64,000 bases of DNA from Eledone cirrhosa (taxonomy: Eukaryota): NCBI GenBank assembly GCA_964016885.1, contig OZ024741.1:165912001-165976000 (forward strand), in the 5' to 3' direction. Both the position numbers and the translations under genes were made by a program. Of this stretch, positions 3,411 to 64,000 are shown in pieces (positions within the stretch are counted from its first letter, which is position 1; every line of letters begins with the position of its first letter). The notes under the pieces were generated by a model. That model ran no database searches. It was given only the letters and a program-made list of their open reading frames with translations, and was not told the origin of the DNA.

Positions 3411-3470
3411 ATTTTATCTGATGAGAGCGTACCAAAGTTTTTGGTACCCTTGAAATATATATAATAAAAT
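3411..3470 (+). ncRNA. Type I hammerhead ribozyme (family A)
   Basis: ATTTTAT-CTGATGA-stem II (GTACCA/TGGTAC)-GAAA-TATATA-TA-ATAAAAT; palindromic minimal stem III. Confidence 0.75.
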
Positions 3471-7941: not shown

Positions 7942-8830
7942 GAATTTTTGCTGAAAGGTAAACGTATTTTAAATATTAGATATTCACATTTAGAAATATC
8001 AAAATATTAAAAATTTTAAATTGTTAAAGAGGATAGGATCATTTTGAAGGTTTATAGGAATATTATAAATTAAACATAGTTCTGAACATGGAATTTTGGC
8101 GATGTCTGCAAGAAGAAAATAATTCTGTTCTGAGATTAATAGAGTTTTGACAGTTAATTATATAAAAAATTTCTTCGAAACACAATTTTCAGAATCTTGA
8201 TAAGTACGCAGGTGCTTCTGAAATCGTTTTCCAAGATATTGAATAGTCTATATTATTGCCTTTTAAGTTCCATATAAGATGTGAAAGTGAAGTAGAAGAT
8301 TTTTTTATCAGATCTTTTAAATGTATGATTATGGTTATTCGAGCGTTCTTTAAATTTTGTAGAAGTGGCACCAACATAGTTAAATATTTTATCTCTAGTT
8401 TTAACTGTGCATTTATAAACTACGTTTTTATCTAAACAATTATTTTGTAAAGGGGAGTTTGATTTGATTCTACAGTTACATTTTATGGAGTTGTTGCTCG
8501 GAACGGTACTATTATACTGAATATTGCTAGAAATATTATTATTGCTACTTTGGTTATTTTGGTTAGGGTTTAAATTTAAGTTTCTATTATTAATTCTATT
8601 TATATTTTGTGCTATGTTCATAGTAGTAGAGTAGGATAGTTTTATCGTATGTCTGTTAAAAATAGAGTGGTATCTGTGGGCTTTAGGAAAACATTTATCT
8701 AGTGCTTTAAAGAATAGCTTTGCTAAAGGTGTTTTAACGCTTAATGAGAATGGGGGGGGGGGGGGTACCAAATAATATTTCTAGTTCTAGTTTTTTTGTT
8801 TGGTTTAGTGTTTAAGTTAAATTGTTTATT
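6655..8830 (-). mobile_element. Fragmented Penelope-like element: GIY-YIG remnant (8189-8771) and 3' pLTR carrying a hammerhead
   Basis: Peptide CNCRIKSNSPLQNNCLDKNVVYKC..YVGATSTKFKER..NH..TF, LS.LIW.LK; downstream hammerhead on the same strand at 6705-6764; linkage of the pieces is inferred. Confidence 0.65.
6705..6764 (-). ncRNA. Type I hammerhead ribozyme (family A)
   Basis: RC: ATTTTAT-CTGATGA-AAGCGTACCAAAGTTTTTGGTACCCTT-GAAA-TATATA-TA-ATAGAAT. Confidence 0.7.
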
Positions 8831-27992: not shown

Positions 27993-30900
27993 TCATTTTT
28001 TTCTGTTTAGCCTTGGCCTTCTAAGTTCTATTTCGCTGGCCTCTCTGATTTGCCTATCTGCTGGGTCATTTCTATGTTTAGATATTCTAATTTCTATGTT
28101 GTCTATGTTACCGTCGTGTTGTTGTCTGGCATGTTCGTATAGTACTGAACCGTTTTTTCGTCCTTTTAGTTCCCCCCAGTGTTGGTCTATCCTTTCACCT
28201 ATGCTGCGAGCTGTCTCGCCTATGTATGTTGTTGTCATGTTTCTGCAAGTACCCTCTGTACATCTTATGCTATAGACTACGTTTCTAGTTTTACAGTTTA
28301 TCCGGGGGTTTACTTTACATATAATACATTTCCTATTAGTACAGTGGGTTTTCTTAAAAGGGTAGGTTTTGCTGATCAGAGATTTTATGGTGGTTCCTGG
28401 CTTCTCTACCACCTTAATCTTTAAGTGGGTCTTTTTCAGGGCCTTTCTACACTGGTTAGCTAATTTCTCTCCAGGGGTAGCGTCCACAAACATGACACTC
28501 TGGTATCTCTGGTTGTCGTACCATGAGGTGGCTTTCCCTATCTTATGTCTAGTCCTTACTAAGCTACTCCATGATTTGCTCCTGTATAATGGGCAAATTC
28601 CTTTCATGTCCAGTTCTATGAGGGTCTTATACTTCTCCGCGGCTCCTTCGTATACTCTGATTCTGTCTCTTTGGTTGTAGCCAGAGAACTGCGTGCGGTT
28701 GATGAAGTGTTGGATGTGTCTTTCCATTTCTGTTGGGTCGCACATGCGGGACACGTTCTTCATCACTCGTACCAAGTCTGCGATCAGAATATTAAACTTA
28801 GCACTACTGGCCATTGCTGAGACTTTGAGTATCAGGTATTTGGAGGCCATGGGTTTAGCATAGTGTGAGTGGAGAATTTGGGCTCTCTCGTCTATAGTGT
28901 TAATCCAGAGTACCGGGTCTAATACAGGTAGTCTATTGTTAGGGTGTTTGGAAGGGTAGTCGATAGTTACAGTTATACTCTGGTGTATGGAATTAGCTAT
29001 CTGCTGGATGCTTTCCATTGTGCTACGTTCTAAATCGAACTTGTTAGTACTCTCTTGTGGGGATGTCCTTATTACTATATTGATGTCGTCTGCGTAACGA
29101 GAGTACATGATGATGTCTATGGAGCTCTCATCAAGGAGATCTTTGAGTCTCCTTTCCCACCATACCATAAAAAGGTTGGCAAACGTCACCAGCTATGCTG
29201 ACGCCAATGGCTGCTCCCTCATTTTGGGTGTAGATTTTCTCGTTGAATTTGAATATGTGGCCCTTGAGGGTAGTTTTGATACTAGCCCCTATTGCATGTG
29301 CGACCATTTTTATTACCTGATCATTGTTTTGGGGGATCCGTATAGCTTTAGTCCACCCAATCCACCTTCCCATGGGAGTCTTTTTTGCCATTGAGGTTAT
29401 GGTGGGGGGGTCTACCTCTTATGGGTCTACTGGGGCAGAAACGTCTAAGGTCATGGCTGTCTAGGTAGTCAGTGTCATAGGTATGTCTAAGTAGGAGACC
29501 CAGTTCGTCTGTGTCGACGTCGCAGAACTCCACCTTACTCTCAATGATCATCTCCACACATTTTTCCACAGCAAAATCAATGTTAATGGATGGGTACAGT
29601 GATACCACATTCATACTGCCTATTATGCAGTTGGATAGGTTCCTGTTTTTGTTGCACTCACTGATTCTGCTGAGGAGGACCTCTGTACTGTCACATACAT
29701 CTGGGACATCTTATTATGGGGCGTATAACCATTGAGAGGAAGTAGGAGATCCTGTAGTTGCTAGCTATATTTGCTCCGCATACAGGTCTTGTTGGTGGTC
29801 CTGTTGTCGGGTCGTCGACTGTCTTGTGGTCTTTGCGGAGCCCATACAAGGGTGGTATGCCATTGTTAGACGCCTGGAAGTTGTTGGCAGTGCGTCTGCT
29901 TGGCTTTAGGATGTCGGTCCACATCATCATGTGAGTGTTGAGGATTTTCTCTCTCCCATCATGTATTTGCTGTGCAATTTCGCTCGTGTTGGTGATGTAG
30001 GGTTGCATAGCCTTGATGTAGTTCGGCATGCTGTCTATTGACATACTACCAGACTTATCCGTGGGTAGACACACTACCTCACCATCCCTTGTGCGTTGCT
30101 TGAGGCTAACCAAGCCTTCTACAGGTTTCCTCCTAAGTTGTTGGGCCTCTGGTCTGCTCTGTCTCTTAGTATATCGGTCTACTATTTGTCTAATCTTATT
30201 TCTAGCTATGGTGAACTGTGCCTCTGTCTCGTCATCTATTTGTTGTGGTATGCAAACCCTTTTATTAAAGGGTAACCTCGTAGGATAGATATTACCCATC
30301 TTATATGTTTTGTCAGCTGGGTTGAAGAATAGTTTCTCTAAGGGGATGTCATTATATCTATCGTCATAGTTGTGAGTGTTGCTATTATTGTTATTATGGT
30401 GGTTGTTGTTGTTCCTATCATTAGCACTATTATTATTGTTATGGTTGCTAGATGTATTGTTGCTGTGATTGTTAGATGTATTGTTGTTGTTTTCTCCACC
30501 GTTATTGTTGTTGTTACTGTTATTTCTACCATTGTGGTTGTTACTTTTATTATGTTTCTTGTTATGTTATTATGTTGCTACATATATTATTTCTATTATT
30601 ACCACTGTGGTTGTTGTTGTTACTCGTATTGTTATCATTATTATTACTGTGGTCGCTGCTGCTGTGTCTATCGTTAATGTTTCTATTATTATTATTATTA
30701 TTGTGGTTGTTGTTGTTGTTGTTGTTCTGTCTATCGTTAATATTATTACCATTATTATTATTACAATTTCTCACTCTCCTGTTATTGTTATGACTATTAC
30801 TATTATAGCTATTATTTCTATACTCAGAGTTATTGTTTATATTACTACTATCGTTATTATTGTTGTTGCTGTCCGTATAGTTGTTGTTGTTGTTTACTTT

Positions 30901-33050: not shown

Positions 33051-33920
33051 CCGTCCTAACCACCATCCTAAACCTTGTTTTTAATAATCACACAGTTCCT
33101 TTCGTTTCATAACTTTTTGTATTTACCGCTGTGATTCTACCTGCTTTGGTCCATCTGTATTCCCTCCACACTTTCGCATCGACCCTCGCTTCTCTCTTCC
33201 CTTCTTCTCCTGACTCGTTTTTTTCTTCTCTCCCTCTCACTCTCTATCCATCCGTTCGGTTTTGATTGTTGACATGTTTACACGTGCCGTGGTGGCCTCT
33301 CTGTTCGCAATCTTTGCGGCACGTTTTTACCACCGTCGTAAAAAAAACCCTTCTGGATTATCTCTCTTTCCATTCTCCTCACTTCTGGTTGCCCGTGTCT
33401 CTCTCACTTTCTCCTTTCTATGTGAGAGGCAGCACGATTATACCAGCTCTGAGTCGTAGCTGACCACCAGGCTAAAGTCTCCCAGGTTGGCCATAACTTA
33501 CTTTCCCGATTTTTCCACGGTTACTTTTTTGCATGTTTCTTTCACCTGTGACTTCCCACGATGGGATCTGTATACTTTTTTCTCCTATTCCTTTCCTATT
33601 TTTTCCCCTTTTCCCTTCGCCCTTTCTTCCTCTCTCCTCATCTCCACCCCTGTTCTTCCTCCTTTCCTTCTCTTTCCTTTTCTCCCCTTTTTTTCTCATT
33701 TTCTCTCTCCTTTTCCACCTGGCCTTTTGATTAATAAAAGGCCTCGGGCGTACCCGAACTACACCGATGTCCTGTAATTCAGCGCCGAAACATCGGTTCG
33801 GGAAACATTTACAGCTGACGATGGAAACTCCTATCTTCCTTTCTCCTCTTATTCCGTCCTAACCACCATCCTAAACCTTGTTTTTAGTAACCACACAGCT
33901 CCTTTCGTTTCATAACTCTT

Positions 33921-40792: not shown

Positions 40793-41938
40793 TGTATGTA
40801 TGTATGTATGTATGTATGTATGTATGTATGTATGTATGTATGTATGTATGTATGTATGTATGTATGTATGTATGTATGTATGTTACCGATGATGTTGATC
40901 TTTTCTTCTTTTCGGGTTATAGCTACTGTCGCTCAGAGAGTGGGATTGGTTCAGTGCACAGTCTTTCCTCACTTTAAAAAATGTCTTCATGCACAGGCAT
41001 TGCACGATAGATTTAATTAATAATTATTAATAATGGTATATCATGCAATGGCCATACTCGATAACGAGGGGGCAGCCATCATCATCATGTATGTATGTAT
41101 GTATGTATGTATGTATGTATGTATGTATGTATGTATGTATGTGTGCATATATGTGTGCATGTATGTATGTATGTGTATATGCATGTACGTATGTATGCAT
41201 GTATGTGTGTGTGTATGCATGTATGTATGTGTGTATGCATGTATGTATGTGTGTATGCATGTATGCATGTATGTATCCATTATGTATTATGTATGTATGC
41301 ATGTATGTATGTATGCATGTATATATGTATTTATGCATGTATATATCTATGTATGAATGTATGCATATATCTCTATGTCGGTATGTATGTGCGTAAGCAC
41401 GTACGTGCGTATGTATGTATATATGTAGGTATGTATATATGTAGGTATGTATATATGTAGGTATGTATATATGTAGGTATGTATATATGTAGGTATGTAT
41501 ACATGTAGGTATGTATATGTAAGTATGAAAGAACGTTTGCATATATATATATATTCTTAAGTTTATCAATACTAATGTGATGTACGTGTTATCTCGCCAC
41601 CTATATTTCAATGGCTCACTTTATTTCATTTTTAACACGATATTTAACTTTCTTCTTGCTTCTTGTTTTATCTATGTCTCTCATGCTAAAGAAGCACCAC
41701 ACGTTTTCCCTAACGTCACAGAAGTCTCTATGTATCTGTTGTAGCTTAATTGCTATATATTAATGTTTTGTCCCACGTCTCTTGCCCCTATTTTCTCAAA
41801 AATTATATTTGGGTATATATATATGTATTCATTAAAATAACAGATTAAAGTTTAAGCAAAGAACCGCTGCTTTCACCCTTAACGGGATCTTCTGAGCCCA
41901 CTTTGGATTTAGTCTTCACATTTATTATATATATATAT

Positions 41939-42163
41939 GGATTGAGGAAGGCGAGGCTGTGTGGTTACTGATAACGAGTGTTAGAAGGTAAGGCGACACC
42001 AACTTTTATCTATCAACATGGCTTGTTGATAGATAAAAGGCTATGGGCGCGCTATGGATAGATGTTCTGTTTATAATGCGCCGAAACATCCATGATCCGT
42101 AGTAAACAGCTGACGAAGGGAAACTTCCATCTCGTGTTTGTGCCGCCTTACCTTCTAACACCC
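41939..42163 (+). mobile_element. Short (TA)n-flanked element with inverted 5' segment, carrying the reordered hammerhead-like motif (42046-42123)
   Basis: 41978-41998 is inverse to 42141-42161; 16-bp hairpin 42003-42039; GATGT-T-CTGTTTA..GCGCC-GAA-ACATC..TAAACAG-CTGACGA. Confidence 0.7.
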
Positions 42164-42216
<53 letters not shown>

Positions 42217-42223
<7 letters not shown>

Positions 42224-42521
42224 GAGAAGAATGAATACTGCGTGGTTGCACATGGGTTACATATGAAAAAAATAGTCCTTCATCAGTGATTTTCCAACCT
42301 TCATTGGTATTTCATCGCTTTAAAAATCATATACCTCCAGTTGGTGCGAGCAATAGCTAAATAAAGCTATTGGGACAAGTAAATCGCGTAAAGCGAGCGA
42401 GACAAGTAAACAAACATAGAAGGATAGCAACGCAAAGATAGGAAAAAACAAGCCCACGGGAGTCCGATCAGCTTAAGCTGTGTGGATTTCATGAGCGAGA
42501 GACAACAGACCGTGCGACGCA
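42217..42521 (-). mobile_element. (TA)n-flanked element carrying the reordered hammerhead-like motif (42275-42376); truncated copy at 56308-56393
   Basis: RC: GTCC-hairpin-TCGC-A-CCAACT-GGA-GGTAT-A-TGATTTT..GCGA-T-GAA-ATACC..GGTTGG-AAAATCA-CTGATGA-A-GGAC. Confidence 0.7.
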
Positions 42522-44809: not shown

Positions 44810-44847
<38 letters not shown>

Positions 44848-45212
44848 TAACAGATTAAAGTTTAAGCAAAGAATCGCTGCTTTCACCCTTAACGGGATCT
44901 TCTGAAACTAACAAAGTCAATCTGTAAACGCAGAACTGGATATTTCAAAAAACGTTGCAACCGGAGGAGGACAGGAAGACGATACTTTGGTTCGTGGAAA
45001 CGTTCGCTGGCGAAGAACGGGAAAAAACGAATAATACGTCATTAATAGGAGTGGTGAAAAACATTTACGCGCAAAGACAGAACCACGTTTATGGTATAAA
45101 AGAGGTCGTAGACTAATGTTCTATTAGGTGGTGCATAGAGACGTTCTCTGGCAATGAACGAAAAAACGAAGATAATACGTCATATGTGGAGCGTGGAGAA
45201 CAATAGCACACT

Positions 45213-45657
45213 AACTGTAATTGTAGGAATCGGGCTGATTGCCCCCTATCCGGGAAATGCCTCTCTAGTAACATTGTCTACAAATGTAAGGTTGTAACAT
45301 CCACGTCCCGAAGGGCCTACATAGGGTTAACCGCCAATAGTTTCAAGCAGCGTCTTTACATGCATACCCATTCTTTTCGTTACCCTCTAAGAAGGAATTT
45401 GACGTCACTTTCAGCTTATATCTGGAGTCTAAAAGACAACCACACCTAATATAAGTTACACTGGGAGATCCTAGCTAGGGCTAGATCGTATAACGGAAAT
45501 AAAAGACCATGTGACCTCTGCGCCGCTGAGGCCCTGGAAATACTCTACGCCGCAGACCACATCTTAAACAAAAAATCTGAGGCAATTTCGGCTTGTAAAC
45601 ATAAATTGCACAAAACTTTCCTGTATTACAGCCCCACGTTATACCCTAACGGATAGT
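45213..45657 (+). pseudogene. Penelope GIY-YIG endonuclease remnant (absent from the ORF track)
   Basis: Manual translation NCNCRNRADCPLSGKCLSSNIVYKCKV..AYIGLTANSFKQRLYMH..SF..TSLSAYIWSLKD(stop)..WEILARA..CDLCAAE..LNKKSE..SACKH. Confidence 0.85.
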
Positions 45658-46564
45658 ACGATCTATACGTGGATATTTTACGTCTTGATGTGGGAGCTAA
45701 GTATATGTTTTGTTTATTCCTTTACTTATTTGCATAGGTAAGTATATACTACCCGTATGTTTTGTGAAGGTACGTATACCTTCTCGTACGTATATTTGAT
45801 TGCTATGGCGTATAATTTTATATATTCTGGTACATAGGGTTTGGCTATGTGTATACGGGAGTTTTTGCGTCTGTGTGATTATGTAGGTTCGTACGTATGG
45901 TGGGTGTGTGTATATGTGTACTTCTTGTTTTAGTTGACTTACGTCTCCGAACATTCGTGTATTTATATGTACATATGTGTGTGCGCTTGTTATATACGTA
46001 TTTATTTGTTTATATACGTTTATATAATTATTTATTTATTTGTATACACGCATACACACACACACATATTTATATGTGCGTGGTTTTGTATACCTATGGT
46101 AAAGTTTTGCGTATGCTTGTGTATGTACGTTTTTATTTGCGTGTATGTATTTATTTATTACTTCTGTATTGTATTTATTTACTTTGTTCTTAACTCTGTA
46201 GCGGAGATTCATTCGGTCTCCTAGTTAGAATTTTAGTCTACGACTTCTGCTATACCATTTACGTGGTTTTGTCTTTGCGTGCTATTGTTCTCCACGCTCC
46301 ACATATGACGTATTATCTTCGTTTTTTCGTTCATTGCCAGAGAACGTCTCTATGCACCACCTAAGAGAACATTAGTCTACGACCTCTTTTATACCATAAA
46401 CGTGGTTCTGTCTTTGCGCGTAATTGTTTTTCACCGCTCCTATTAATGACGTATTATATTCGTTTTTTCCCGTTCTTTGCCCGCGAACGTCACCATGAAC
46501 CAAAGTATCGTCTTCCTGTCTTCCTCCGGTTGCAACGTTTTTTGAAATATCCAGTTCAGCGTTT

Positions 46565-46640
46565 ACAGATTGACTTTGTTAGTTTCAGAAGATCCCGTTA
46601 AGGGTGAAAGCAGCGATTCTTTGCTTAAACTTTAATCTGT
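46565..46640 (+). ncRNA. Type I hammerhead with CAGAAGA (U4A) core in the pLTR
   Basis: ACAGATTGA..AGTTT-CAGAAGA-T-CCC-GTTAA-GGG-T-GAAA-GCA..TGC-TT-AAACT-TTAATCTGT. Confidence 0.7.
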
Positions 46641-46738
46641 TATTTTAATAAATATTTGCTCTACGGTTCTTATATATTTGATATATATTTATCCTTATCG
46701 AGCCCTCTTTGGATTTTAGTCTTCAAATTTATTATTAT

Positions 46739-48130: not shown

Positions 48131-48690
48131 ACCCTTCTGGATTATCTCCCTTTCCCTTCCCCCCACTTCTGGTTGCCCGTGTCTCTCTCTCACTTTCTCC
48201 TGTCTATGTGAGAGGCAGCACGATTATACCAGCTCTGAGTCGTAGCTGACCACCAGGCTAAAGTCTCCCAGGTTGGCCACAACTTACTTTCCCGATTTTT
48301 CCACGGTTACTTGTTTGCGTGTTTCTTTCACCTGTGTCTTCCCACGATGGGATCTGCACACTTTTTTCTTCTATTGCTTTCCTATTTTTCCCCCTTCTTC
48401 CTCTCTCCTCATCCTTTTCCCCCCTGTTCTTCCTCCTTTCCCTCTCTTTCCTTTTCTCTCTCCCTTTGTTCTCTCTTTCCCTCTCCTTTTCCACCTGGCC
48501 CTTTGATTAATAAAAGGCCTCGGACGCACCCGCACTACACCGATGTCCTGTAATTCAGCGCCGAAACATCGGTTCGGGAAACATTTACAGCTGACGATGG
48601 AAACTCCTTTCTTCCTTTCTCCTCCTGTTTTGTCCTAACCACCATACTAAACCTTGTTTTTAGTAACCACACAGCTCCTTTCGTTTCATA

Positions 48691-56280: not shown

Positions 56281-56389
56281 TACTGTATATACATATATAT
56301 ATATATATAAAAAACATGAGAAGAAAGGTTACATATGATAAAAATAGTCCTTCATCAGTGATTTTCCAACCTTCATTGGTATTACATCG

Positions 56390-56460
<71 letters not shown>

Positions 56461-59570: not shown

Positions 59571-59984
59571 ATCAGAGATTTCCGATCGGAAAGAGAGAGA
59601 TTTCAACTTGAACCTTACATCCGTAAAGTTGGGAAGAGGGAGCAGGGGTGAGGAGGAGGAGGGGATGAGGAGGAGGGGGGAGGTGGAGGAGGAGGTGGAG
59701 GAAATAATTGAGGGGTGACAGGAAGAGGAGAGTGAAGGAGCTGGAGGCTGGTAACCATTTATCCCCCCCTCCCCCCTAAAAAGAACTTCCGGCTAAAGTG
59801 GGAATTAAGTGTGACTTTTAGAGAGATATAATGAAGTGGATGTCCCGAGGAAAGATCTGGCGATGGGAACCCAGAAAACTATATTGTCGTATAGCTGTAT
59901 CTAGGGCTGGTATAGGTGATGTAGTTTAGGGTCAGAGAATGGTAAGGCGTGGAGAAGGAAGGGGGGGGGGCATTTTGTTATAGT

Positions 59985-62900
59985 AGAGACAGTGTGGTTG
60001 GGGTGGTAGTAGTGGTAGTGTAGTTGAGGTGGTAGTAGAGATAGTGTGGTTTGGGTGGTAGTAGTGGTAGTGTAGTTGATGTGGTAGTGAAGACAGTGTG
60101 GTTGGGGTGGTAGTAGTGGTAGTGTAGTTGATGTGGTAGTGAAGACAGTGTGGTTGGGGTGGTAGTAGTGGTAGTGTAGTTGATGTGGTAGTGAAGACAG
60201 TGTGGTTGGGGTGGTAGTAGTGGTAGTGTAGTTGATGTGGTAGTGAAGACAGTGTGGTTGGGGTGGTAGTAGTGGTAGTGTAGTTGATGTGGTAATGAAG
60301 ACAGTGTGGTTGGGGTGGTAGTAGTGGTAGTGTAGTTGATGTGGTAGTGAAGACAGTGTGGTTGGGGTGGTAGTAGTGGTAGTGTAGTTGATGTGGTAAT
60401 AGAGATAGTGTAGTTGAGGTGGTAGTAGAGATAGTGTAGTTGGGGTGGTAGTACTGGCAGCGTAGTTGGGGTGGTAGTAGTGGTAGTGTAGTTGATGTGG
60501 TAGTGAAGACAGTGTGGTTGGGGTGGTAGTAGTGGTAGTGTAGTTGATGTGGTAGTGAAGACAGTGTGGTTGGGGTGGTAGTAGTGGTAGTGTAGTTGAT
60601 GTGGTAGTGAAGACAGTGTGGTTGGGGTGGTAGTAGTGGTAGTGTAGTTGATGTGGTAGTGAAGACAGTGTGGGTGAGGTGGTAGTAGTGGTAGTGTAGT
60701 TGATGTGGTAGTGAAGACAGTGCGGTTGGGGTGGTAGTAGTGGTAGTGTAGTTGATGTGATAGTGAAGACAGTGTGGTTGGGGTGGTAGTAGTGGTAGTG
60801 TAGTTGATGTGGTAGTGAAGACAGTGTGGTTGAGGTGGTAGTAGTGGTACTGTAGTTGATGTGGTAGTGAAGATAGTGTGGTTGTGGTGGTAGTAGTGTT
60901 AGTGTAGTTGATGTGGTAGTGAAGACAGTGTGGTTGGGGTGGTAGTAGTGGTAGTGTAGTTGATGTGGTAGTGAAGACAGTGTGGTTGGGGTGGTAGTAG
61001 TGGTAGTGTAGTTGATGTGGTAGTGAAGACAGTGTGGTTGGGGTGGTAGTGTAGTTGATGTGGTAGTGAAGACAGTGTGGGTGAGGTGGTAGTAGTGGTA
61101 GTGTAGTTGATGTGGTAGTGAAGACAGTGTGGTTGGGGTGGTAGTAGTGGTAGTGTAGTTGATGTGATAGTGAAGACAGTGTGGTTGGGGTGGTAGTAGT
61201 GGTAGTGTAGTTGATGTGGTAGTGAAGACAGTGTGGTTGAGGTGGTAGTAGTGGTAGTGTAGTTGATGTGGCAGTGAAGATAGTGTGGTTGTGGTGGTAG
61301 TAGTGTTAGTGTAGTTGATGTAGTAGTGAAGACAGTGTGATTGAGGTGGTAGTAGTGGTAGTGTAGTTGATGTGGTAGTGAAGACAGTGTGATTGAGGTG
61401 GTAGTAGTGGTAGTGTAGTTGATGTGGTAGTGAAGACAGTGTGATTGAGGTGGTAGTAGTGGTAGTGTAGTTGATGTGGTAGTGAAGACAGTGTGGTTGA
61501 GGTGGTAGTAGTGGTAGTGTAGTTGATGTGGTAGTGAAGACAGTGTGGTTGGGGTGGTAGTAGTGGTAGTGTAGTTGATGTGGTAGTGAAGACAGTGTGG
61601 TTGGGGTGGTAGTAGTGGTAGTGTAGTTGATCTGGTAGTGAAGACAGTGTGGTTGGGGTGGTAGTAGTGGTAGTGTAGTTGATGTGGTAGTGAAGACAGT
61701 GTGGTTGGGGTGGTAGTAGTGGTAGTGTAGTTGATGTGGTAATAGAGATAGTGTAGTTGAGGTGGTAGTAGAGATAGTGTAGTTGGGGTGGTAGTACTGG
61801 CAGCGTAGTTGGGGTGGTAGTAGTGGTAGTGTAGTTGATGTGGTAGTGAAGACAGTGTGGTTGGGGTGGTAGTAGTGGTAGTGTAGTTGATGTGGTAGTG
61901 AAGACAGTGTGGTTGGGGTGGTAGTAGTGGTAGTGTAGTTGATGTGGTAGTGAAGACAGTGTGGTTGGGGTGGTAGTAGTGGTAGTGTAGTTGATGTGGT
62001 AGTGAAGACAGTGTGGGTGAGGTGGTAGTAGTGGTAGTGTAGTTGATGTGGTAGTGAAGACAGTGCGGTTGGAGTGGTAGTAGTGGTAGTGTAGTTGATG
62101 TGATAGTGAAGACAGTGTGGTTGGGGTGGTAGTAGTGGTAGTGTAGTTGATGTGGTAGTGAAGACAGTGTGGTTGAGGTGGTAGTAGTGGTACTGTAGTT
62201 GATGTGGTAGTGAAGATAGTGTGGTTGTGGTGGTAGTAGTGTTAGTGTAGTTGATGTGGTTGTGAAGACAGTGTGGTTGGGGTGGTAGTAGTGGTAGTGT
62301 AGTTGATGTGGTAGTGAAGACAGTGTGGTTGGGGTGGTAGTAGTGGTAGTGTAGTTGATGTGGTAGTGAAGACAGTGTGGTTGGGGTGGTAGTGTAGTTG
62401 ATGTGGTAGTGAAGACAGTGTGGGTGAGGTGGTAGTAGTGGTAGTGTAGTTGATGTGGTAGTGAAGACAGTGTGGTTGGGGTGGTAGTAGTGGTAGTGTA
62501 GTTGATGTGATAGTGAAGACAGTGTGGTTGGGGTGGTAGTAGTGGTAGTGTAGTTGATGTGGTAGTGAAGACAGTGTGGTTGAGGTGGTAGTAGTGGTAG
62601 TGTAGTTGATGTGGCAGTGAAGATAGTGTGGTTGTGGTGGTAGTAGTGTTAGTGTAGTTGATGTGGTAGTGAAGACAGTGTGGTTGGGGTGGTAGTAGTG
62701 GTAGTGTAGTTGATGTGGTAGTGAAGACAGTGTGGTTGGGGTGGTAGTAGTGGTAGTGTAGTTGATGTGGTAGTGAAGACAGTGTGGTTGGGGTGGTAGT
62801 AGTGGTAGTGTAGTTGATGTGGTAGTGAAGACAGTGTGGTTGGGGTGGTAGTAGTGGTAGTGTAGTTGATGTGGTAATGAAGACAGTGTGGTTGGGGTGG

Positions 62901-64000
62901 TAGTAGTGGTAGTGTAGTTGATGTGGTAGTGAAGACAGTGTGGTTGGGGTGGTAGTAGTGGTAGTGTAGTTGATGTGGTAATAGAGATAGTGTAGTTGAG
63001 GTGGTAGTAGAGATAGTGTAGTTGGGGTGGTAGTACTGGCAGCGTAGTTGGGGTGGTAGTAGTGGTAGTGTAGTTGATGTGGTAGTGAAGACAGTGTGGT
63101 TGGGGTGGTAGTAGTGGTAGTGTAGTTGATGTGGTAGTGAAGACAGTGTGGTTGGGGTGGTAGTAGTGGTAGTGTAGTTGATGTGGTAGTGAAGACAGTG
63201 TGGTTGGGGTGGTAGTAGTGGTAGTGTAGTTGATGTGGTAGTGAAGACAGTGTGGGTGAGGTGGTAGTAGTGGTAGTGTAGTTGATGTGGTAGTGAAGAC
63301 AGTGCGGTTGGGGTGGTAGTAGTGGTAGTGTAGTTGATGTGATAGTGAAGACAGTGTGGTTGGGGTGGTAGTAGTGGTAGTGTAGTTGATGTGGTAGTGA
63401 AGACAGTGTGGTTGAGGTGGTAGTAGTGGTACTGTAGTTGATGTGGTAGTGAAGATAGTGTGGTTGTGGTGGTAGTAGTGTTAGTGTAGTTGATGTGGTA
63501 GTGAAGACAGTGTGGTTGGGGTGGTAGTAGTGGTAGTGTAGTTGATGTGGTAGTGAAGACAGTGTGGTTGGGGTGGTAGTAGTGGTAGTGTAGTTGATGT
63601 GGTAGTGAAGACAGTGTGGTTGGGGTGGTAGTGTAGTTGATGTGGTAGTGAAGACAGTGTGGGTGAGGTGGTAGTAGTGGTAGTGTAGTTGATGTGGTAG
63701 TGAAGACAGTGTGGTTGGGGTGGTAGTAGTGGTAGTGTAGTTGATGTGATAGTGAAGACAGTGTGGTTGGGGTGGTAGTAGTGGTAGTGTAGTTGATGTG
63801 GTAGTGAAGACAGTGTGGTTGAGGTGGTAGTAGTGGTAGTGTAGTTGATGTGGCAGTGAAGATAGTGTGGTTGTGGTGGTAGTAGTGTTAGTGTAGTTGA
63901 TGTAGTAGTGAAGACAGTGTGATTGAGGTGGTAGTAGTGGTAGTGTAGTTGATGTGGTAGTGAAGACAGTGTGATTGAGGTGGTAGTAGTGGTAGTGTAG
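59985..64000. repeat. 52-bp G/T-rich satellite, >4 kb, runs off the window end
   Basis: Unit GTGGTAGTGAAGACAGTGTGGTTGGGGTGGTAGTAGTGGTAGTGTAGTTGAT (60081 to 60133). Confidence 0.97.

Follow-up and report, generated by a model that had tools for sequence, protein, structure and literature searches.

A non-circularly permuted hammerhead-like motif with an interrupted block C in ORF-less Penelope-like repeats of Eledone cirrhosa

Hammerhead ribozymes of types I to III share a nested three-way junction with the core segments in circular order. Outside this definition fall the RNAs of types SGC and CSG, which cleave in vitro (Eckert et al. 2023, PMC10085705). Type SGC, comprising HRIMA-1 and its variants, came from RefSeq, metagenome and metatranscriptome searches and has the order cleavage site, GAAA, CUGAnGA, the full core, a linker of about 3 nt between stems I and II, a fourth helix tying these two stems together, and crossing pseudoknots. 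Type CSG, a circular permutation of the same pseudoknotted topology, is reported from two sequences in that paper. Block C, that is, CUGAnGA plus the strand of stem II, is intact in both, directly continuous in type SGC and placed first in type CSG, and the same source assumes it to be uninterruptible. The core insertions listed in the available part of Perreault 2011 (PMC3088659) measure 1-2 nt and include no helix between A9 and G10.1, and the literature searched held no natural or tested hammerhead with helices at that place.

Hammerheads are also carried by non-LTR retrozymes and by canonical Penelope-like elements (PLEs), where they are of type I; these are non-autonomous tandem units with one hammerhead each, coming from PLE pLTRs (bioRxiv 10.64898/2026.07.22.740005; PMC11167929). 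Naiads are PLEs that target (TA)n and show partial tandems, 5' inversions and an optional tail (Craig et al. 2021, PMC8557442). That description names no canonical hammerhead for them, only 'core' or 'half core' marks.

What we describe here is a motif found at 42.0 kb in the window, by which we mean the whole 64-kb stretch of DNA analysed. We read this element as a copy, truncated at its 5' end, of a hammerhead motif with non-circular permutation that ends an ORF-less Penelope-like repeat, likely mobilised by Naiads, whose intact copies likely cut their own RNA after an NUH triplet, and we put the probability of this reading at about 0.78. The parts of the 42.0-kb copy, which belongs to family A, are as follows:

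41939 to 42002, minus strand: inverted copy of the element's 3' tail, including an extension missing from the direct arm, by comparison with the family tail
42003 to 42018, minus strand: 16-nt fold-back of 42024-42039, the 5' inversion junction and the site where strand a was lost
42017 to 42045, plus strand: hairpin f, 29 nt, with one T>G change relative to the family, immediately 5' of b
42046 to 42051, plus strand: b, GGCGCG, the 5' strand of stem II and predicted supplier of G10.1
42052 to 42059, plus strand: e, CTATGGAT, the 5' strand of the helix tying the distal ends of stems I and II
42061 to 42066, plus strand: c, GATGT (42061-65), a strand of stem III, and H=T (42066), giving a GUU triplet
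between 42066 and 42067, plus strand: predicted cut, placed by analogy, with support from a relative
42067 to 42073, plus strand: d, CTGTTTA, the stem I strand past the cut site
42077 to 42090, plus strand: block G, made of b' TGCGCC (42077-82), GAAA (42083-86) and c' ACATC (42086-90)
42091 to 42095, plus strand: 3-nt loop and GA between stem III and helix e, kink-turn-like
42095 to 42109, plus strand: e', ATCCGTAG (42095-102), and d', TAAACAG (42103-09), the partners of e and d
42110 to 42116, plus strand: CTGACGA (CUGACGA), the catalytic core strand
42117 to 42123, plus strand: a', AGGGAAA, whose partner a is absent from this copy
42124 to 42163, plus strand: 3' end of the element, shortened and bordering on (TA)n

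Other copies in the window are these:

33711 to 33828, plus strand: family B ribozyme copy with every strand present
48487 to 48604, plus strand: second family B copy, b and e mutated
42275 to 42377, minus strand: family E copy with every strand present, about 110 bp past the end of the 42.0-kb element
56346 to 56395 (approximate), minus strand: 5'-truncated family E copy, 3' half only

Every block that the original prediction had assigned to 42046-42123 lies where it was placed, and its reading of a reordered hammerhead is supported, all core bases standing at the claimed places in the order site, GAAA, CUGAnGA. The 16-bp fold-back (42003-18/42024-39) is an exact match and, as had been proposed, strand a disappeared at this 5' inversion, the segment 42003-42018 now occupying its place. 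The copy begins at the first base of f, with the inverted copy of the 3' tail lying beyond the fold-back; since it retains the entire 29-nt hairpin (42017-45), only strand a was lost, and a copy lacking this strand is probably impaired. The stems ascribed to the copy at 33.7 kb, CTGTAA/TTACAG and CCCGA/TCGGG, are likewise present. As for the compensatory change claimed between these two copies, pairing is indeed retained, but the helix e pairs of families A and B are not strictly homologous, because their flanking spacers differ. Two copies had gone unmentioned, namely that of family B at 48.5 kb and one of a third family, encoded by the minus strand (42275-42377).

A descriptor combining stem I, stem III, the upstream partner of stem II and both core motifs, written after the motif had been seen, finds three matches in the window (33815+, 42110+ and 42286-), and the same-order descriptor gives a single match in total over 300 dinucleotide shuffles. 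No Rfam model of a hammerhead is present among the 150 of 274 window matches listed, nor among the 19 that 41930-42420 gives at E<=10. The split form is missed by standard descriptors and, among the matches listed, by Rfam, unlike the nested hammerheads of retrozymes and canonical type I PLEs, which standard descriptors find. It is undescribed in the literature searched, which covered few subscription journals and the main texts of bioRxiv papers, and the terms octopus, Acropora and coral are absent from the text of the supplement of Eckert et al. (PMC10085705).

Intact copies follow the order a, hairpin f, b, e, c, H, d, linker, b', GAAA, c', e', d', CUGAnGA, a', in which the core is arranged non-circularly as site, GAAA, CUGAnGA. 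The upstream partner predicted for AGGGAA is present, the pairing strands a and a' being TTTCCCT and AGGGAAA in family A1, TCTCCCT and AGGGAGA in A3, and TTTTCCA and TGGAAA in B. In the fold that we propose, CUGAnGA would continue into a', which would pair with the upstream strand a; this strand would in turn stack on hairpin f, and f would continue into b. As a' pairs with a, and f lies directly between a and b, the first base of b would come to position 10.1, so that a four-way junction, rather than a direct bond, would bring G10.1 next to A9. For families C, D and E, the predicted position of this junction is 1-2 bp deeper in stem II. Stem III and helix e would be able to meet if the RNA bends there like a kink-turn. 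The 3-nt loop and GA between them are kept in A, C, D and E, and the canonical kink-turn pattern (3-nt loop, tandem G.A) is seen in 33/33 and 32/33 copies of D and 24/24 of E, with a 2n=U variant in A and C; family B, which has different spacers, was left out of this scoring. Spacing from U16.1 is also fixed in A, C, D and E, b lying at -19 and GAAA at +18. Folding restricted to nested pairs, which is unable to represent the crossing structure, favours for family A an alternative hairpin that blocks stems I and III.

The motif is abundant in the 3.0-Gb genome, where first-look candidates number 836 for A, 1011 for B, 869 for A3, 1046 for C, 2604 for D and 2275 for E. Family E is very young, its best copies being 99-100% identical, and a 27-nt motif of this family has 1388 exact matches in the genome. 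The carrier units are ORF-less, pyrimidine-rich and about 520-860 nt long, often tandem or beside an inverted 5'-truncated neighbour, and inserted in (TA)n. The attribution to a Penelope-type carrier holds, the repeats being tandem and ORF-less, with 5' inversions and tails and with (TA)n as target. Additional diverged forms of the ribozyme lie in the flanks of eight loci (L023 and L024, both on the minus strand, L040, L075, L116, L068, L162 and L181), and the superfamily is larger than the seven subfamilies scored below. At positions 1560-2105 of another locus (L122), a 95-nt tandem array consists of the ribozyme 3' half plus tail, with units starting 4-6 nt past the predicted cut.

The helices were scored on 208 copies of seven subfamilies, obtained from 252 anchored copies after dropping 7 with an out-of-register 3' half and 37 with the 5' part missing; the A1 set includes the window copy that lacks a. 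GAAA is kept in 203/208 copies, each of the seven subfamilies has CUGAnGA as its majority core sequence, and the NUH triplets are GUU, GUA, GUC, AUA and AUC across families whose helices are rewritten. Strands paired within their own family are Watson-Crick matched more often than strands combined across families: 41/42 versus 114/216 for stem I, 35/35 versus 132/180 for stem III, 28/28 versus 56/144 for a/a', 48/56 versus 156/288 for hairpin f, 34/35 versus 72/180 for helix e, and 31/42 versus 137/216 for stem II. Core-anchored offsets and separate alignments served for the comparison of family B and of the a/f arm, which MAFFT misaligned across families. In a gapless alignment of 18 copies from A, D and E, 95.1% of cells are paired, against 77.0% after shuffling (a control that overstates significance, since the subfamilies are related) and 33-48% in slid controls; both sides have changed in 16/24 pairs, including 7/7 in stem I. 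A 10-copy alignment of D and E that includes a and f is 91.1% paired, with changes on both sides in 11/37 pairs.

The original prediction of compensatory change between families is thereby borne out, the seven subfamilies keeping six helices over the 208 copies. It had also held that the proposal would fall if substitutions broke helices as often as they preserved them, and inside the families this is indeed the case: of 351 variant pair types, 248 disrupt pairing and 103 preserve it. We read this within-family breakage as neutral, unselected decay after insertion; between subfamilies the changes are compensatory.

A relative of the Amil type occurs in metagenome contigs, where an 18-nt motif has at least 121 matches, most of them from two assemblies and presumably in host DNA. 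Fourteen in-register copies are 95.3% paired over the same six helices, both sides have changed in a/a', e and stem I, and no base is left unpaired at the four-way junction. In one contig (L256), an RT C-terminus ends about 350 nt upstream of the motif on the same strand, with no endonuclease downstream; another (L271) holds an RT3/4 piece close to the Naiad-Amil row of Fig. S1 in PMC8557442, for which Pfam gives only a weak RVT_1 match (E=0.079).

Stems I and III adjoin the core and are supported by covariation. The motif shares with type SGC the order, the full core, the short linker between stems I and II, the fourth helix that ties these stems and the crossing pseudoknots, but where stem II of the published SGC forms directly follows CUGAnGA, here its 5' strand lies upstream, with a/a' and hairpin f inserted; the unbroken block C and missing a/f arm of type CSG set that type apart as well. 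One could nevertheless suppose that this is simply type SGC, the bases after CUGAnGA and those that precede GAAA forming a stem II of 1-2 bp (in A and B with one base bulging out), and b/b', a/a' and f being accessory or an off-state. The base after CUGAnGA does pair with 11.1 in 29/29 copies of C (G-C), 24/24 of E (A-U), 29/33 of D (U-A) and 6/7 of A2, and one bulged base gives A and B two G-C pairs. Stem II is moreover the weakest helix, b being unpaired at 10.1-11.1 in C (0/29) and E (0/24). Pairing immediately after CUGAnGA is, however, found in only 2/25 copies of A1, 0/27 of A3 and 3/63 of B, and reaches no more than 1-2 bp in C, D and E, while a/a' and f covary in every family. The sequence of the metagenome family, with ACAG after the core and a b' that ends in GCC, does not permit such a stem, and by eye neither do those of Amil, EuTe, Chem-3, Plae and Movir-2; it is in the metagenome family, with pair 1 of a/a' U-A in 14/14 copies and the G-C pair of b in 11/14, that the signal at the cut site is clearest. 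We consider this explanation unlikely. The motif is, as far as its sequence allows it to be classed, hammerhead-like and of type-SGC order, yet lacks an intact block C, which makes it new with respect to the published SGC forms; these came from sequence surveys, whereas the split form sits in animal retroelements. In A, B, D and the metagenome family it is b that provides the 10.1-11.1 pair beside G12; in C and E it is the base after CUGAnGA, which in E, with its CUGAUGA core, is the sole possible source. Since that base pairs in C and E where b fails, the junction would slide in these two families. We find it rather probable that the core is active although its backbone is interrupted between A9 and G10.1, the two sides being joined again by a Holliday-like four-way junction that can slide by 1-2 bp, a topology outside the six permutations considered possible, and that Naiads of ctenophores, cnidarians, acanthocephalans, crustaceans and molluscs use this fold (nematodes the related CSG) to make RNA 5' ends in vivo.

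Whether the structure cuts can be approached through the 5' ends of copies. For the metagenome family, 100 of the 121 matches listed were scorable; 24 of them extend past -45, indel or edge cases account for 7, and the 5' end of 69 lies in the motif. Among these 69 ends, 13 fall exactly on the first base after the predicted cut (one of them doubtful by eye), and by range 19 fall at -2 to +1, 45 at +2 to +9, where some matches at +8/+9 may be due to chance, and 5 at -3 to -44. As the search motif starts at +9, it gives no bias for 0 over upstream positions. A cliff of this kind is what one would expect of an RT that copies RNAs owing their 5' end to the ribozyme. In family A, all 48 exact matches together yield 22 ends, of which 15 lie on or beyond the site and 7 upstream of it, and setting aside 8 tandem or (TA)n-abutting ends leaves 7 versus 7 (p=0.014), a signal that is only suggestive. 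No cliff appears in family E, where the first 100 matches give 16 ends, 2 at -2 to +1 and 12 upstream, nor among copies chosen by BLAST, a sample biased to long copies, in which 1/90 5' ends lies at the site. A conserved RNA structure that goes back to a hammerhead but has lost the ability to cut, or needs protein for it, and that acts as the RT recognition or priming element of these repeats would agree with the missing cliff in the young family E, with the many tandem copies that read through an uncut motif, and with the Anolis PLE hammerhead, which reportedly depends on protein and whose cleavage is not required for insertion in vitro (PMC11167929), so that activity may differ by family. 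It fits poorly with the conservation of all catalytic core positions and the NUH while the helices are rewritten, and with the sharp cliff at the predicted bond in the metagenome family, and we hold it to be distinctly improbable. PLE hammerheads that cleave as dimers have been described, and the arrangement of these elements in tandem and inverted arrays would suit a pairing of the blocks between two RNAs or neighbouring tandem units in place of one compact pseudoknot. The fixed spacing from b to GAAA, the long and non-palindromic stems of most families, and the cleavage of monomeric SGC RNAs of the same order (PMC10085705) make this very improbable indeed. Returning to self-cleavage within one RNA, intact copies are likely to cut themselves; the cut of a tandem read-through transcript would create the 5' end of the next unit's RNA, which the Naiad RT/endonuclease would then copy into (TA)n.

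The carriers share with Naiads (TA)n targets, pLTR tandems, 5' inversions and a tail, and the ribozyme fold stands at 10 or more consensus ends; they differ in having no ORF, a full Naiad having an ORF with N-terminal GIY-YIG and C-terminal RT. They are likely non-autonomous and Naiad-dependent. File S5 has 54 consensus sequences, of which 53 were read by eye over their final ~420 letters, and longer 3' regions could hide more. The split form is seen at 10/53 ends, namely Bfor (with a weak stem I), Chem-3, Amil, Aacu, Anas, Movir-2, Plae, EuTe, Obim and Ovul, and Esco probably carries a decayed one. By eye, the published octopus Naiads have the same architecture as the repeats of this genome, and Obim and Ovul have the f-loop sequence and the kink-turn-like bend in common with family D. 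All 8/8 nematode ends (Ppac, Parc, Nbra-1/2/3, Hcon, Hpol and Asuum) are plain type CSG by eye. In Ptep, Smim and Dst-1/2/4, hammerhead core pieces are otherwise arranged, with the site before CUGAnGA in the two spider entries; apart from these spider and ostracod entries, no such fold was seen by eye in the part covered of the remaining ends. Movir-1, Chem-4, Mgal, Bpla, Mphi, Scon and Mmer carry at their 3' ends a motif that we take to resemble the twister ribozyme, and its presence at these seven ends suggests that Naiads may swap ribozyme classes. Another conserved 3' motif, common to hydrozoan, bivalve and hemichordate Naiads (Chem-1, Chem-2, CGi, Sglo, Olur, Tgra, Pmar, Skow-1/2 and Pfla-1/2), is a candidate for a further ribozyme or structured RNA.

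Motif searches of the Eledone cirrhosa genome for an autonomous partner gave one 5'-truncated match in one case and 0 in a second. No linked ORF was found by a protein-motif scan of 211 loci, nor by tblastn of six upstream open-frame pieces from the two metagenome contigs (L256/L271) against the window and 388 genome loci. A GIY-YIG fragment beside L101-L106/L110 was rejected as the partner, belonging to an adjacent opposite-strand PLE with its own canonical hammerhead. For a stretch of family B, no RNA source was listed among the sequencing runs; the four listed were contigs of unspecified kind.

If the motif cleaves, the stated rule that CUGAnGA and stem II are inseparable would be broken, and non-circularly permuted ribozymes would move from rare metatranscriptome RNAs to thousands of copies in animal genomes. 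Cleavage would also explain the apparent absence of hammerheads in Naiads, which are among the most abundant Penelope-like elements, as these would have seemed to lack one because search descriptors are blind to the split form. The 5'-end cliff, for its part, constitutes genomic evidence on whether PLE hammerheads cut in vivo. The predicted ribozyme RNA, at about 115 nt, is small enough for easy testing.

The window holds other repeats as well. CUGAnGA motifs resembling the canonical minimal type I hammerheads of other PLE families occur at 3418+, 6757-, 17628-, 46935+, 47277+, 27678- and 31807-. Decayed PLE ORFs with an RT end and C-terminal GIY-YIG-like motifs, recognised by eye, lie at 27993-29192 and 8253-8780, both on the minus strand; they gave no passing match in Pfam and are unrelated to the reordered ribozyme. 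At about 44835-46655 there is an inverted repeat of ~380 nt, 96-97% complementary, with arms 1.06 kb apart and a MITE- or PLE-like character, and about 59850-64000 is occupied by a long satellite with a strong G skew and a 26/52-nt period.
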